Shown one piece after another: positions 1,590 to 4,338 of a stretch of DNA of 18,934 nt (within the stretch, counting starts at the first letter, position 1; each line of letters starts with the position of its first letter). The position numbers and the translations under genes were made by a program. The notes under the pieces were generated by a model. That model did not search any database. It had not been told where the DNA came from and was given only the letters and a program-made list of their open reading frames with translations. The stretch comes from a virus (lineage: Duplodnaviria; Heunggongvirae; Uroviricota; Caudoviricetes), in the IMG/VR virus record IMGVR_UViG_2675903368_000002; one strand, written 5' to 3'.

Positions 1590-2098
1590 GAGAACTAAAC
1601 CTCACCAAAGAACAGCATGAGTGGCTGAATGGCTGGCTTGAACTGTGGGGCGCATGGGTTTATTCAGGTCGTTTGGAAAAGCGCATGAGCAGCGTAATAG
1701 CGAAGTTCATGGAGAGCGTAGAGCCGGGAAGAATTATGACAAGGCCAATGTGCAATGATGATGATGGAATGTTGATTTCTCAGGTCGTCGATTCCGTCAT
1801 GTGCATTGACAAGAAAGCCTTTGGCATCCTCCTCAGCTACTACGCTCATGGTTCATCTAAGCGAGCAATTGCATCCTACTATCACGCGACTGCAAAGCCA
1901 CGCAAGATGTGTGGACGTGGTGGCGAGGGATGGAGAAAACCTTCACTGGCAACCTGTAGAAACGAAATTGACGACATCCTGAAAGCGTCATTATTTGTTT
2001 TGTACCAACCAATGCAAAATGCTTTCAAAATGCGTAAACGTGTTGAGAAAGTTAAGCATGTTGCTGTTAAAAACCTTGACATGCAATTAGCCATTTAG
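1580..2098 (+). CDS. Q: Late-gene antiterminator Q (non-lambda allele; phage 21/82-like Q family)
   Basis: 172 aa with an N-terminal WGAW motif and Cys-containing central region typical of the Q-antiterminator family; no resemblance to lambda Q. GTG start at 1580 is preceded by GGGAGAAGG and overlaps the phosphatase stop. Sits immediately upstream of the late promoter and lysis genes. Confidence 0.8.
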
Positions 2099-2106
2099 CC
2101 ATAATT
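2076..2106 (+). promoter_or_regulatory. Candidate late promoter (pR'-like) with expected Q-utilisation site
   Basis: TTGACA at 2076-2081 and CATAAT/ATAATT at 2100-2106 with an 18-19 bp spacer, overlapping the 3' end of Q. Position matches the lambdoid late promoter; the qut element itself is inferred, not identified. Confidence 0.5.
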
Positions 2107-2116
2107 AGAGGGTAAG

Positions 2117-2158
2117 CTGCCGTTAGTGACTCTTAAGTTGCAACGGTGGCTTTTTTTT
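2117..2158 (+). terminator. Intrinsic terminator just downstream of the late promoter (tR'/t82-like)
   Basis: GC-rich hairpin: GCUGCCGUU (2117-2125) pairs with AACGGUGGC (2142-2150), followed by a U8 run at 2151-2158. Lies ~45 nt from the predicted start, the arrangement expected for a terminator read through by Q-modified polymerase. Confidence 0.6.
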
Positions 2159-2163
2159 GTTTG

Positions 2164-2182
2164 CACAACAGGTAAGAGCATT
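2164..2182 (+). repeat. 19-bp direct repeat copy 1 (CACAACAGGTAAGAGCATT)
   Basis: Exact 19-mer immediately after the terminator T-run; an identical copy lies at 2415-2433. Confidence 0.9.
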
Positions 2183-2222
2183 CTCCCTTATGGGGCTTGG
2201 CTTAAATGCACCGAGTGCTCTT

Positions 2223-2246
2223 ATCGTTGTGGCAGCACAACGATAG
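2223..2246 (+). other. Perfect 10-bp inverted repeat (TATCGTTGTG-gcag-CACAACGATA): RNA hairpin or protein-binding palindrome
   Basis: Left arm 2223-2232, 4-nt spacer, right arm 2237-2246, followed by GUUUUCG. Located inside the segment bounded by the 19-bp repeats. Confidence 0.5.
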
Positions 2247-2414
2247 TTTTCGTCAGAGTTGGCGACTTTGCGGTTTTTTAGAAACTGACCACAAAGATAA
2301 ATGCAAACGATGATGTTGTTCTGATGGCGGCGTAATAGCCTGTAAGTCAGCAAGGTCTTCCGACTCCTTGTAAACAAATTCGGCGCACTGGCCCGGTGTG
2401 ATTAATAATGGGCA

Positions 2415-2433
2415 CACAACAGGTAAGAGCATT
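2415..2433 (+). repeat. 19-bp direct repeat copy 2 (CACAACAGGTAAGAGCATT)
   Basis: Exact copy of 2164-2182; directly abuts the hammerhead motif. Confidence 0.9.
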
Positions 2434-2484
2434 GCGCGCCTGACGAGTCCATGAGGGACGAAACGCATTAGCGTCGCGCGGAGT
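2432..2484 (+). ncRNA. Hammerhead self-cleaving ribozyme motif (stem I open, type I topology); predicted cleavage between C2475 and G2476
   Basis: Sequence 2434-2480 reads GCGCGC-CUGACGA-GUCC-AUGAG-GGAC-GAA-ACGC-AUUA-GCGU-C^GCGCG. All invariant core positions are present: C3 U4 G5 A6 N7 G8 A9 at 2440-2446, G12 A13 A14 at 2460-2462, A15.1 (2463) paired to U16.1 (2474), H17 = C2475. Stem II is 4 bp (2447-2450 with 2456-2459) with a 5-nt loop; stem III is 4 bp with an AUUA loop; stem I is 5 bp (2435-2439 with 2476-2480) and continues after a G-G mismatch. On the strand transcribed from the late promoter. Confidence 0.6.
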
Positions 2485-2924
2485 ATCCCCAGCCGGGGAA
2501 TAACTGGATACCAGGGGAGACAACCCTAAGCGCATTTACGAGTGTGTTTAGGGCGTGGGTCGGCAATGACTCCCTGTGCAGCCGACATCTGGCCCGGCAA
2601 CATACAGTGCTCTTTCCGTTGTGCTGAATTAAGCGAATACCGGAAGCAGAACAGGATCACCAAATGCGTACAGGCGTCATCGCCGCCCAGCAACAGCACA
2701 ACCCAAACTGAGCCGTAGCCACTGGCTATCCTGAACTCATCAGTGATAGTTACGCTGCGGCCTTCTATACATGACCTTCGTGAAAGCGGGTGGCAAGAGG
2801 CTGCGCTAACAACCTCCTGCCGTTTTGCCCGTGCATATCGGTCACGAACAAATCTGATTACTAAACACAGTAGCCTGGATTTGTTCTATCAGTAATCGAC
2901 CTTATTCCTAATTAAATAGAGCAA

Positions 2925-2949: not shown

Positions 2950-3270
2950 AAGATGCCAGAAAAACATGACCTGTTAGCCGCCATTCTCGCGGCAAAGGAA
3001 CAAGGCATCGGGGCAATCCTTGCGTTTGCAATGGCGTACCTTCGCGGCAGATATAATGGCGGTGCGTTTACAAAAACAGTAATCGACGCAACGATGTGCG
3101 CCATTATCGCCTGGTTCATTCGTGACCTTCTCGACTTCGCCGGACTAAGTAGCAATCTCGCTTATATAACGAGCGTGTTCATCGGCTACATCGGTACTGA
3201 CTCGATTGGTTCGCTTATCAAACGCTTCGCTGCTAAAAAAGCCGGAGTAGAAGATGGTGGAAATCAATAA
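2947..3270 (+). CDS. S: Holin/antiholin S (class I holin, dual-start S107/S105)
   Basis: 107 aa, essentially identical to lambda S as recalled ([20 protein letters not shown]...); three hydrophobic transmembrane segments; MKM dual-start motif. Confidence 0.95.
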
Positions 3271-3730
3271 TCAACGTAAGGCGTTCCTTGATATGCTGGC
3301 GTGGTCAGAGGGAACTGATAACGGACGGCAGAAAACCAGAAATCATGGTTATGACGTCATTGTAGGCGGAGAGCTATTCACTGATTACTCCGATCACCCT
3401 CGCAAACTTGTCACGCTAAATCCGAAACTCAAATCAACAGCCGCCGGACGTTACCAGCTTCTTTCCCGTTGGTGGGATGCCTATCGTAAGCAGCTTGGCT
3501 TGAAAGATTTCTCTCCGAAAAGCCAGGACGCTGTGGCACTGCAGCAGATTAAAGAGCGTGGCGCTTTACCGATGATTGATCGCGGTGATATCCGTCAGGC
3601 TATCGACCGTTGCAGCAATATCTGGGCTTCATTGCCGGGCGCTGGTTATGGTCAGTTCGAGCATAAGGCTGACAGCCTGATTGCAAAATTCAAAGAAGCG
3701 GGTGGAACGGTCAGAGAGATTGAGGTATGA
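3254..3730 (+). CDS. R: Endolysin R (lytic transglycosylase, lambda R-type)
   Basis: 158 aa, near-identical to lambda R as recalled ([35 protein letters not shown]...). Start overlaps the end of S. Confidence 0.95.
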
Positions 3731-4164
3731 GCAGAATAACCGCGATTATCTCCGCTCTGGTTATCTGCATCATCGTCTGCCTGTCATGGGCTGTTAATCA
3801 TTACCGTGATAACGCCATCGCCTACAAAGAGCAGCGCGATAAGGCCACATCCACAATCGCTGACATGCAGAAGCGTCAACGTGACGTAGCAGAACTCGAT
3901 GCCAGATATACAAAGGAGCTTGCTGATGCTAACGCGACTATCGAAAGTCTCCGTGCTGATGTTTCTGCTGGGCGTAAGCGCCTGCAAGTCGCCGCCACCT
4001 GTGCAAAGTCAACGACCGGAGCCAGCAGCATGGGCGATGGAGAAAGCCCAAGACTTACAGCAGATGCTGAACTCAATTATTACCGTCTCAGAAGTGGAAT
4101 CGACAGGATAACCGCGCAGGTTAACTACCTGCAGGAGTACATCAGGACGCAATGCCTTCGATGA
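3727..4164 (+). CDS. Rz: Rz i-spanin (inner-membrane spanin subunit)
   Basis: 145 aa. The N-terminal TM region ([31 protein letters not shown]) matches lambda Rz, with a coiled-coil-like periplasmic domain; the middle diverges from lambda. ATGA overlap with the R stop. Confidence 0.9.
3926..4111 (+). CDS. Rz1: Rz1 o-spanin lipoprotein, embedded in the +1 frame of Rz
   Basis: ATG at 3926 preceded by AAGGAG (3913-3918). Signal peptide with lipobox LLGVSAC followed by a Pro-rich mature part ([13 protein letters not shown]), the classic embedded-spanin arrangement. The listed ORF start at 3899 lacks an SD and is probably upstream read-in. Confidence 0.8.
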
Positions 4165-4338
4165 TAGCGATAATTTTACTCATCATCCTTCACATCTGGC
4201 TCTGTAGGCAGGGTGGTGAACACTTCTGGAGTGAATCCGGATTAAATATCTCATTGCTGATGCTTGATATTGAGCATCTGGCGCGCGGTAAGGGGCTGCG
4301 TTGAGATAAGGGCCAGTCATTACAAATACCAGGATTTA

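Follow-up and report, generated by a model that had tools for sequence, protein, structure and literature searches.

The window analyzed here is an 18,934-nucleotide stretch of viral DNA (Caudoviricetes; IMG/VR record IMGVR_UViG_2675903368_000002), in whose late-operon leader a 19-mer occurs twice. An earlier note on this DNA had read the two copies as direct repeats at the boundaries of an insert, followed by a replaced segment that opens with a ribozyme, which raises the question of what the repeats, the insert and the replaced segment are. Our answer is that the 5' leader of the late operon of this P22-like prophage is built from exchangeable structured-RNA cassettes on a conserved scaffold; taking arrangement and working as a whole, we put the probability of this reading at roughly 0.6. 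The anatomy of the leader (Table 1) is well supported, and the function of one of its cassettes, module A, we only infer.

Table 1. Elements of the late-operon leader, in window coordinates.
Feature	Position	Strand	Evidence or remark
Late promoter pR' (context)	2076..2105	+	TTGACA-18-CATAAT, 11/12 matches; HK75 pR' annotated at homologous place
tR' terminator hairpin and T-run (context)	2118..2159	+	Tr' annotated in HK75; aligned with lambda
H1 copy 1	2164..2231	+	MFE fold, arm covariation
H1 copy 1, 5' arm	2164-2182	+	CACAAC / AGGU / AAGAGCAU
H1 copy 1, loop "type 1"	2183-2213	+	
H1 copy 1, 3' arm	2214-2231	+	GUGCUCUU / AUC / GUUGUG
Mini-H2 hairpin	2222..2245	+	UAUCGUUGUG GCAG CACAACGAUA
Module A, putative tmRNA-like coding RNA	2242..2414	+	Sub-threshold Rfam tmRNA matches, tag variants, covariation, homologues
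Module A, putative resume codon GCA	2303-2305	+	
Module A, putative tag ANDDVVLMAA	2303-2332	+	10 codons
Module A, stops TAA TAG	2333-2338	+	
Module A, helix-5-like hairpin	2321-2324/2347-2350 and 2329-2332/2337-2340	+	Covariation
Module A, pseudoknot	Stem 1 2351-2355/2366-2370, stem 2 2360-2363/2380-2383	+	Covariation
Module A, 3' hairpin	2391-2394/2410-2413	+	Conserved loop GGUGUGAUUAAUAAU
H1 copy 2	2415..2623	+	Folds, arm covariation; 5' arm 2415-2433
H1 copy 2, loop	Module B and 2602-2605	+	
H1 copy 2, 3' arm	2606-2623	+	GUGCUCUU 2607-2614, UCC, GUUGUG 2618-2623
Module B	2434-2601	+	168 nt: hammerhead and 120-nt double-pseudoknot domain
Type I hammerhead	2434..2481	+	Sub-threshold Rfam match, intact core, covariation
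Hammerhead stem I	2435-2439/2476-2480	+	Only 5 bp
Hammerhead core	CUGACGA 2440-2446; GAA 2460-2462	+	
Hammerhead stem II	2447-2450/2456-2459	+	Compensatory changes
Hammerhead stem III	2463-2466/2471-2474	+	Compensatory changes
Predicted hammerhead cleavage	C2475/G2476	+	Triplet GUC 2473-2475
Double-pseudoknot domain	2482..2601	+	Covariation, fixed length
Helix e	2483-2488/2506-2511	+	
Helix d (pseudoknot)	2492-2497/2593-2598	+	
Helix b	2514-2521/2568-2575	+	
Helix a	2524-2534/2543-2553	+	
Helix c (pseudoknot)	2559-2564/2581-2586	+	
Lambda-type H2 cassette	2618..2702	+	GUUGUGCUG ... CAGCACAAC; alignment

The repeated 19-mer is an arm of a conserved hairpin

CACAACAGGTAAGAGCATT was found exactly twice, at 2164-2182 and 2415-2433, as previously described; a third copy is absent at up to two mismatches, and 200 shuffles give an expectation of zero. 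The 19-mer provides the 5' arm of H1, a hairpin conserved at the RNA level. Lambda carries one H1 in its leader, with a loop of 39 nt; the window carries two, each completed by a 3' arm of its own. In H1, CACAAC and GUUGUG pair as the lower stem, which a small internal loop separates from an upper stem of 8 bp, and the terminal loop is of free content. All eight pairs of the upper stem covary, strand-specific G-U pairs among them, and the covariation score of 0.294 compares with 0.065-0.134 in slid controls and was reached in none of 500 shuffles. The arm is kept, with compensatory changes, in lambda, in P1-like plasmids and in lytic phages. The entire hairpin of copy 1 is 95.6% identical in P1-like phage-plasmids, and it stands after module A in phage MK54. 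A conserved hairpin arm with compensatory changes contradicts the view of the repeat as an incidental product of a junction.

The repeats could instead act at the level of DNA, as a target-site duplication or as single-stranded recombinase sites resembling integron attC (AAC...GTT), which would fit the direct repeats at the boundaries of the insert, the CACAAC...GUUGUG bracketing of cassettes and the exchange of loop content between close relatives. We consider this very improbable. Lambda and the uninserted leaders already carry a single 19-mer, as a paired hairpin arm, and the repeat was therefore not created by the insertion, as a target-site duplication would have been. Both window copies have a pairing partner of their own, G-U pairs are tolerated on the transcribed strand only, and the H1 arms and module A always lie on the same strand. 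Further, no recombinase co-occurs with the cassettes, and the neighboring genes of lytic carriers are completely different; it is because of this lack of a recombinase, together with the RNA-level signal, that we reject the attC-like interpretation.

Origin of the arrangement

The layout of the lambda leader (NC_001416) given in the earlier note proved correct: a single 19-mer directly follows the T-run of tR', and 39 nt separate it from AGTGCTCTTTCCGTTGTG. In the window, lambda-like sequence (AGTGCTCTTTCCGTTGTGCTGAATTAAGCG) resumes at 2606 and not at ~2596, and the segment that stands in for the 39 nt of lambda is therefore 2434-2605, with a length of 172 nt instead of the ~160 nt estimated before.

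The IMG/VR loci L205 and L208 share the Q/tR' region of the window, continue with one 19-mer and then the ribozyme module, and are identical to the window minus 2183-2433 in 560 of 568 positions. What had been claimed as an insert is thus a 251-bp unit (2183-2433, one repeat copy included) that these loci lack. Prophages of the E. coli 55989 and O26 types have 2160-2434 in common with the window and diverge beyond. The leader of the window is also carried by the E. coli lysogen EC6622 (NZ_CP096587, about 1,447,200-1,448,250). Since L205 and L208 correspond to the window without the 251-bp unit, they support the gain of a cassette by recombination in the hairpin arm, and these loci and the 55989- and O26-type prophages make recombination through a shared short sequence, already suggested for the insert, the simplest reading. 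The present arrangement would then stem from homologous recombination at the shared H1 arm between a leader with only the ribozyme module and one bearing module A.

A hammerhead fused to a double-pseudoknot domain

The loop of the second H1 copy is filled almost entirely by module B. That the replaced segment opens with a hammerhead, as the earlier note had it, is confirmed at 2434-2481; missed at the time was the larger unit, of fixed length (168 nt), at one end of which the ribozyme lies. In Rfam the hammerhead scores 24.7 bits in the window (E=0.002 in a 1-kb search; 28.7 bits in EhYP), below the gathering score of 34. The type I core is invariant in 11 homologues, with GUC or GUA as cleavage triplet, and the three helices, with stem I open, are 95-100% paired. 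For loop II we found no conserved loop-loop contact or pseudoknot partner; the tertiary contact between stems I and II may come from the adjoining pseudoknot domain.

An Rfam search gave no match for this second domain. Over its full 168 nt, module B has no indel in 10 homologues at 80% identity; it is 98.4% paired, and 19 of 50 pairs show compensatory changes (at most 6 in slid controls) in a small set of 11 sequences from about five lineages. Both pseudoknots covary. Two hairpins that had been pointed out in this region, CCCUAA...UUAGGG (2524-2553) and GUCGGC...GCCGAC, are real and covarying, the latter being one strand pair of a pseudoknot. Wherever module B occurs, it lies either inside the loop of an H1 hairpin or between genes for tRNAs.

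A tmRNA-like module within the insert

The idea that the insert could encode a small RNA gains support from module A, which lies within it and appears to be an RNA derived from the coding part of tmRNA; the identity of the insert as a tmRNA-like coding module had been missed. Module A contains a tmRNA-type resume context, a short tag frame with a hydrophobic and Ala-rich C-terminus and a stop, and across these three elements it is identical in 37 of 45 positions (82%) to two-piece phage tmRNAs called by ARAGORN. The Rfam model tmRNA_permuted (RF04321) scores 26.3 bits in the window, 33.1 bits in L005 and 26-33 bits at independent module A loci (E=6e-5 in a 701-nt search), all below its gathering score of 47.

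Module A matches 726 phage records, from Escherichia, Salmonella, Klebsiella, Shigella and Erwinia phages, and is found in 454 of 5426 E. coli genomes. Its identity is ~85-95% in temperate and lytic enterobacterial phages, including unrelated sipho-, podo- and myoviruses, and a sigma-70 promoter directly precedes it in 31 of 57 distinct copies. Pairing reaches 99.6-100%, with compensatory changes, in the outer stem of the helix-5-like hairpin and in the two stems of the pseudoknot; of 17 pairs overall, 9 covary, against no more than 3 in slid controls. The tag occurs in more than 15 variants of the pattern AN(D/E)xx(hydrophobic)L(M/A)(A/V)A, every one of 10 codons and some differing by synonymous changes; the 33-nt frame neither gains nor loses a base among them, and the stop is always at codon 11.

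This conservation also bears on a palindrome and T-run that had been proposed as a regulatory element or backup terminator. The 10-bp inverted repeat exists, at 2222-2231/2236-2245 with loop GCAG, one base off the previously given 2223-2246 (a scan tool, which includes a G-T pair, reports 2221-2246). The T6 run is likewise present, at 2274-2279 and not at 2271-2276. The palindrome forms a hairpin, mini-H2, that borrows the GUUGUG of the H1 3' arm and is mutually exclusive with the H1 lower stem; at other loci, a GUUGUG...CACAAC stem closes cassettes of 75-130 nt. Since GUUGUG can pair backwards (H1) or forwards (mini-H2) in the manner of an attenuator, and since the scan lists 2221-2246 as terminator-like, the palindrome, the U-tract (~2222-2252) and T6 might be envisaged to attenuate late transcription or to terminate it as a backup. 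This strikes us as very improbable: the scan found 2 such sites where 1.6 are expected by chance, only 4 U follow the palindrome, in a tail that reads just UUUUCG and is the conserved 5' end of module A, and AGUUUUCG plus T6 is conserved interior of module A, also present in promoter-driven copies that have no such hairpin. In addition, RNA polymerase modified by lambda Q resists terminators.

The tRNA-like half

ARAGORN detected no tRNA or tmRNA in the window and no tmRNA in any module A locus, and a regular-expression search for a canonical T arm had no hit, whether in the window or across the complete genome of phage C1, a carrier of module A. In C1 and the window we found no tRNA and no Rfam family at gathering thresholds. 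As no tRNA-like domain was found in either, the defining half of a tmRNA is missing. For an equivalent of PK1 5' of the tag, candidate pairings showed no covariation when the variants were inspected, and the duplex energy of module A with E. coli tmRNA was equaled in 27 of 40 shuffles.

Several candidates were considered and dropped. The tRNA-like cassettes located 3' of module A (X type, type 2) are not constant partners, and in the carrier L160 module A is flanked by hairpins alone. Loop type 1 of H1, read as a miniature permuted tRNA-like domain (acceptor strands CUCC-C-UUAU-GGGGCUU, possible G3-U70), was rejected as a general answer because near-identical copies of module A precede unrelated H1 loops. 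An AUG frame overlapping the tag encodes MQTMMLF* in the window and unrelated peptides elsewhere, and minus-strand ORFs conflict with the strand-specific G-U covariation.

Module A could also be viewed as an undecoded decoy of the mRNA-like and pseudoknot part of tmRNA that dampens or redirects host trans-translation, for example by engaging ribosomal protein S1, RNase R or SmpB-tmRNA complexes. The lack of a tRNA-like domain in C1 and the window and the conserved structure of the module agree with this. A decoy has no need of an intact frame, however, and here both the frame and the chemistry of a tmRNA tag survive many substitutions, some of them synonymous, for which reason we regard an undecoded decoy as unlikely.

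Still less probable, in our judgment, is that the cassettes are functionless debris of phage tRNA/tmRNA operons, accumulated in a non-essential leader prone to recombination. Several observations would fit: tRNA-Thr and tRNA-Asn occupy the same leader slot in Sf6 and BTP1, the cassettes of P1-like plasmids lie directly 3' of tRNA-Asn and tRNA-Thr, and some H1 loops contain T-arm fragments. Moreover, the tRNA-like cassette of HK75 has a T arm and a weak Rfam tmRNA match, and the H2 cassettes of the window and of lambda align to it, minus the T arm. Yet debris would hardly be so similar in unrelated phages, with a promoter of its own, as module A is, nor would one expect every tested helix to be maintained by compensatory changes and module B to remain free of indels at 80% identity.

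Proposed working of the leader

In our preferred reading, that of exchangeable RNA cassettes on the H1 scaffold, Q-modified polymerase would pass tR' and transcribe the cassettes before reaching S, R and Rz. Cleavage by the hammerhead is predicted after C2475; it would release a free leader RNA that contains module A, and the mRNA for lysis and structural proteins would keep the pseudoknot domain as a cap at its new 5'-OH end, an arrangement expected to slow decay that depends on the 5' end. The H1 hairpins have the geometry of RNase III sites (6 bp, an internal loop of AGGU / UCC and 8 bp, about two turns of dsRNA) and may serve as processing or insulating sites, probably as RNase III substrates, after which the GUUGUG...CACAAC ends could pair and close each cassette.

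Module A would most likely act in ribosome rescue. Because its tag frame behaves like a translated frame, we favor a role as alternative template or as competitor in host trans-translation. A bolder possibility, which we advance only tentatively, is that it represents a widespread, unannotated family of "headless" tmRNAs, decoded without a conventional tRNA-like domain and released from the late leader by a hammerhead whose appended double-pseudoknot domain would itself be a new RNA fold; this family would extend over enterobacterial lambdoid and P22-like phages, Deseoctovirus-like siphoviruses, G7C-like podoviruses and others. If so, the degradation tag of the host would be replaced or rivaled during infection by one ending in LMAA or LAVA instead of ALAA.

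Should module A be decoded or interfere with trans-translation, it would be a hidden phage device aimed at the main pathway of ribosome rescue and protein tagging in the host, present in E. coli, Salmonella, Klebsiella and Shigella phages, some of them candidates for therapy, and in prophages of O26:H11 EHEC. The coding half of tmRNA would then be shown to work, or to be exploited, apart from the tRNA half. The combination of hammerhead and pseudoknot would offer a compact natural tool with which to cleave a polycistronic RNA and cap the 5' end so created, and a conserved hairpin in the late-operon leader of lambda itself would gain a concrete role. The cassette scaffold would also explain why RNA cargo, for example tRNAs, StxS and the Pas/STnc100 sRNAs, is concentrated in the gap between Q and the holin gene.

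Comparison with known systems

With the two-piece tmRNA (ssrA) of phages, module A shares an A-rich AUAAAU before the GCA resume codon, a 10-codon tag starting with AND or ANE and ending in LMAA or LAVA, a stop codon placed in a helix-5-like hairpin loop and a pseudoknot thereafter. In contrast, it lacks the acceptor stem, the T arm, the CCA end and the G3-U70 pair, it measures ~170 nt against 300-400 nt, and it either sits within H1 hairpins or has a promoter of its own. A single functional tmRNA half on a phage has a parallel in the "TLD-only" tmRNA of Mycobacteriophage DS6A (PMC4131195), but DS6A keeps the tRNA-like half, whereas the module A family keeps the coding and pseudoknot half; the same 2014 survey of phage ssrA lists no family consisting of the coding half only. 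In the literature searched, the tag strings do not occur, and no publication describing comparable tmRNA-like RNAs of phages was found.

For hammerheads in prophages, a role in cleaving long phage transcripts has been proposed (Perreault et al. 2011, PMC3088659). The one in module B resembles such phage and prophage hammerheads in its canonical core, its three stems and its intergenic location in a long phage transcript, which fits transcript processing, and is set apart by its sub-gathering score, its constant fusion to a double-pseudoknot domain that is always 120 nt long and its nesting in the loop of a conserved hairpin.

The H1 hairpins are comparable to RNase III hairpins such as those between T7 genes, with an interrupted helix of ~17 bp and a small internal loop between units of a polycistronic transcript. 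In lambda itself, where H1 stands just after tR', RNase III sites in the late transcript are the subject of Daniels et al. 1988, going by its title as cited in PMC7547250. Unlike such hairpins, H1 holds large, variable and structured cargo in its loops, and its cleavage is a prediction.

Finally, the cassettes share the slot between Q/tR' and the holin gene, and the horizontal exchange, with the other late-leader cargo of lambdoid phages: tRNA genes, StxS, the Pas sRNAs and STnc100. The last is an expressed sRNA (bioRxiv 10.64898/2026.05.13.724894, which does not mention modules A and B), and a related cassette in P1-like plasmids resembles it. Whereas this cargo consists of tRNAs or of Hfq-type sRNAs with terminators of their own, modules A and B have neither feature.

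Organization of the late leader

By its sequence, the window belongs to a P22-like phage or prophage whose relatives include Sf101, CUS-3 and Kapi1; identity to these is 96-97% over terminase and portal. Between the terminator tR' and the S holin gene it carries a long untranslated leader, the seat of repeats and RNA modules (see table). The anatomy of this leader is well supported: a scaffold hairpin (H1), a tmRNA-like module (module A), a hammerhead-pseudoknot module (module B) and a recombinational origin. The gap between Q and holin holds tRNA genes in Sf6 and BTP1, and known RNA cargo there includes StxS (PMC7547250) and the sRNAs Pas and STnc100 (bioRxiv 10.64898/2026.05.13.724894); the latter preprint mentions neither tmRNA nor hammerhead. 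An EHEC prophage of E. coli O26:H11 str. 11368 (locus L223) has a 1.07-kb unannotated gap from the Q antiterminator to a lambda-family holin (3221-4292), with module A at 3501-3767.

Features of the late leader and its flanks, in window positions
Feature	Position	Remark
Q gene	ends 2098	phage-21/HK75-type
pR'	2076-2105	late promoter
tR'	to 2159	hairpin and T-run
19-mer, copy 1	from 2164	5' arm of H1 copy 1
H1 3' arm, copy 1	2214-2231	
Inverted repeat	2222-2231 with 2236-2245	GUUGUG...CACAAC stem, 4-nt loop
Module A	2242-2414	tmRNA-like coding RNA
T6 run	2274-2279	
19-mer, copy 2	from 2415	5' arm of H1 copy 2
Module B	2434-2601	hammerhead and double pseudoknot
Predicted scission	C2475/G2476	from the cleavage triplet
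Lambda-like sequence resumes	2606	
H1 3' arm, copy 2	2606-2623	
H2 cassette	2618-2702	GUUGUG...CACAAC stem enclosing 75 nt, as in lambda
S holin gene	at 2947	lambda-type

The 19-mer CACAACAGGTAAGAGCATT occurs twice, exactly, with 0 occurrences expected by chance. An earlier note had stated that lambda has a single copy, and NC_001416 indeed reads one 19-mer directly after tR', 39 nt and then AGTGCTCTTTCCGTTGTG... The inverted repeat, the T6 run and the resumption of lambda-like sequence that it described are likewise real, but its positions for them (2223-2246, 2271-2276 and ~2596) were off and are corrected in the table. Its finding stands and is of more interest than it described.

The H1 scaffold hairpin

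Both 19-mers have a pairing partner further downstream, GUGCUCUU-(U/A)(C/U)C-GUUGUG, and the MFE fold of 2160-2720 yields both H1 hairpins (z-score −4.1). Across loci of phage and IMG/VR records, the upper stem of 8 bp takes the forms AAGAGCAU/GUGCUCUU, AAUGGCAC/GUGCCAUU, AAGGCAAU/GUUGCCUU, AAGCUGCU/GGCAGCUU, AAAUCAAU/GUUGGUUU, AAUGACAC/GUGUCAUU and others. In a set picked by flanking anchors alone, which hence includes chance pairs, compensatory changes occur at 8/8 pairs, and the covariation score of 0.294, against 0.065-0.134 with slid partners, was reached by 0 of 500 shuffles. G-U pairs are found on the transcribed strand only, so the covariation signal lies at the RNA level.

The loop is free in content. 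Lambda and the lytic phage C1 have loops of 39 nt, copies 1 and 2 of the window loops of 31 nt and ~170 nt, and the loops of otherwise near-identical phages are unrelated. Even where the module A of two phages is nearly identical, their H1 loops and X-type inserts (see below) are wholly different; several H1 loops have a short motif in common (UGGCUUAA, UUGCUUAA or UGGUUAGCC). The GUUGUG of the 3' arm has an alternative partner in a downstream CACAAC, and the resulting stem closes the next cassette, enclosing tRNA-like bodies of 100-130 nt in HK75, MK54, IME11 and P1-like plasmids.

Recombinational origin

Two IMG/VR leaders (L205 and L208) have Q and tR' as in the window, then a single 19-mer followed by the ribozyme module, and are identical to the window without 2183-2433 at 560 of 568 positions. 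The stretch 2160-2434 of the window is shared at 99.6-100% identity by prophages of E. coli 55989, O26:H11 and others, which diverge beyond it. On these comparisons we read the window as a recombinant, with the crossover within the shared H1 5' arm. The full combination is present in just 2 of 5426 complete E. coli genomes, and at least 6 distinct IMG/VR sequences have module B directly after the module A 3' end and 19-mer, as in the window.

Module A

A distant BLAST search matched the region in 726 phage records, mostly over 2242-2434. Carriers of module A include Deseoctovirus-like siphoviruses (C1, Sa179lw, Sf11, Akira), G7C-like podoviruses (IME11, EC1-UPM, St11Ph5) and Klebsiella, Erwinia and Felixounavirus records, and the matches fall in unannotated intergenic DNA. 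Non-mobilizable Klebsiella plasmids of 104-114 kb (PLSDB, H112-H117), possibly phage-plasmids, carry it at 86-91% identity.

Rfam gave sub-threshold matches only, to tmRNA families over the coding region (26.3 bits for the window; 33.1 bits, E=6e-5, for IME11). The module reads AAAGAUAAAU-GCA AAC GAU GAU GUU GUU CUG AUG GCG GCG UAA UAG, encoding ANDDVVLMAA; variants in other carriers include ANEEMYLAVA, ANDEQFLAVA, ANDDLMLMAA, ANDNVFLAVA, ANEERFLMAA, ANDNTFLAVA and ANDTQYLAVA. In all carriers the frame has 10 codons with the stop as codon 11, AN(D/E) and L-(M/A)-(A/V)-A are conserved, and synonymous changes are present. Genuine two-piece tmRNAs that ARAGORN called in the viral scan have the tags ANDERFLMAA and ANDNAFLMAA and share the resume context of module A; over the resume-context/tag stretch they are identical to module A at 37 of 45 positions. 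Module A may be related to, or derived from, genuine two-piece (permuted) tmRNA genes such as those called by ARAGORN in four IMG/VR contigs (L093, L118, L128, L180; tags ANDERFLMAA, ANDNAFLMAA, ANDEVFALAA, ANDESAYLMAA).

In an alignment of 47 distinct sequences, pairing reaches 99.6-100% in the outer helix that encloses the stop codons and in the two stems of the H-type pseudoknot 3' of it, with pseudoknot variants CCGA:UCGG, CCAG:CUGG, CCAA:UUGG and CUAG:CUAG. Overall, compensatory changes are present at 9 of 17 pairs, whereas slid controls have no more than 3. A third hairpin keeps its loop, GGUGUGAUUAAUAA, on a wholly changed stem. A promoter (TTGACA-17-TAGATT, start at ~AGAUAGUUUUCG) precedes 31 of 57 distinct copies; 14 copies lie directly 3' of the H1 3' arm, and 7 have the window's arrangement.

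ARAGORN called no tmRNA in any carrier, the complete genome of C1 has no tRNA, tmRNA, Rfam family or canonical T arm, and none of these was found in the window. As no tRNA-like domain was found in these searches, module A does not qualify as a tmRNA, although it matches the coding half of one.

In C1 (L002, 2455-2960; equal to L221, 12792-13290), module A lies in a self-contained unit of ~470 nt, from promoter to terminator and antisense to the flanking tail genes. The other parts of this unit are an H1 whose loop is of lambda type, an H2 cassette and a long hairpin (ACUUAACAUUCAGC...GCUGGAUGUUAAG); the loop of the latter (AUGUAGGGGUAUG...) is also present in other phages.

Module B

Every copy of module B either fills the loop of an H1 or stands between tRNA genes. 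Some lambdoid leaders (L205, L208, L216, L217) have it as their only H1 loop; in the T7-like phage EhYP it comes after the terminator of the capsid gene, and in phages of Pectobacterium and Dickeya, as in metagenomic contigs, it adjoins tRNA genes. All 10 distinct homologues measure exactly 168 nt, at identities down to 80%. A type I hammerhead occupies the first 47 nt. Its core is invariant, and its cleavage triplet is GUC in the window and GUA in two loci (L225, L227); the position of this triplet predicts the cut.

The other 120 nt contain five helices, of which two are pseudoknots. Across 11 sequences, 98.4% of cells are paired; compensatory changes are present at 19 of 50 pairs, whereas slid controls have no more than 6. 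None of 500 shuffles attained the observed values, and both pseudoknots covary. An Rfam search up to E = 10 gave no match for this domain, whose strand order is not known to match that of HDV-like, twister or glmS ribozymes. In Pectobacterium phage Pappous (L198, 1535-1651), a 'hypothetical protein' CDS, probably spurious, is annotated wholly within the module.

Related cassettes

H1 with the copy-1 loop recurs at 95.6% identity in ~94-kb P1-like phage-plasmids. In one of these, p12579_1 (L228), H1 hairpins and cassettes form an unannotated array of ~900 nt (1285-2190) directly 3' of tRNA-Asn and tRNA-Thr. The array ends in a terminator, and its terminal cassette is similar to STnc100 of Rfam, with 37.8 bits where the gathering score is 47. 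Of the 264 plasmid places in E. coli genomes, many match 2164-2231 only and are on ~93-120 kb plasmids like p12579_1.

X-type cassettes (L005, phage IME11, 2749-2883; L003, 2729-2868; L228, 1367-1500 and 1797-1897) have the layout GUUGUGGUG-AAU-GCGC AGGCUGAU GCGC-[hypervariable 35-100 nt]-GCCGG AGAUCAGCA CCGGC-CACCACAAC. Their outline is tRNA-like, with a D-like loop GCUGAU able to pair with a T-like loop AUCAGC, a pairing that covaries in MK54 (ACUGAU/AUCAGU); neither ARAGORN nor Rfam called them. A type 2 cassette in HK75 (L006, ~1195-1318), also found in L080 and L029, has canonical tRNA geometry (7-bp acceptor, AA, D arm GCUC/GAGC, T arm GCCGG-UUCGAUU-CCGGC), but a ~75-nt insert replaces the anticodon arm and CCA is not encoded; its Rfam tmRNA match is weak (20.2 bits). 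The H2 cassettes of lambda and the window align to type 2, but without the T arm.

In five loci (L019, L029, L051, L052, L101), module A is followed by an alternative scaffold hairpin, CCCAC-CAAU-GAGAGC ... GCUCUC-AUUC-GUGGG, of H1 architecture and unrelated sequence, and then by a conserved domain (UAACAACGGGCAUGUCGCC...CACGAAACGUGGCA). Two further loci (L160, L164) have more sequence families of this hairpin design on module A flanks.

Proposed working and comparison with known systems

Late transcription from pR', Q-dependent past tR', would copy the RNA cassettes first. The hammerhead cut would then part the leader RNA (tR' read-through, H1 copy 1, module A, H1 5' arm and ribozyme) from the lysis and morphogenesis mRNA, which would start with a 5'-OH and the pseudoknot domain. 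A 5'-OH and 5' structure should disfavour the 5'-monophosphate-dependent attack of RNase E. Pairing in H1 could hold both fragments together until H1 is cut or unwound. H1 matches the form of RNase III substrates and may be cleaved accordingly; the lambda Q-dependent late transcript was reported in 1988 to contain RNase III sites.

We infer both the function of module A and the enzymes acting on H1. The main rival account takes module A for a decoy; the behaviour of the tag frame, however, argues for translation, and we therefore favour a role in trans-translation, as template or competitor. That module A might pair directly with host tmRNA was also considered, but this idea found no support, the duplex energy being no better than for shuffled sequences.

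Prophage hammerheads were proposed as transcript processors in 2011 (PMC3088659). The tag strings of module A do not occur in the literature searched. A 2014 survey lists phage ssrA in mycobacteriophages and Bacillus phage G only, besides the 'TLD-only' case of DS6A (PMC4131195); whereas DS6A has a tmRNA consisting of the TLD only, module A, which that survey does not describe, is the reciprocal case.
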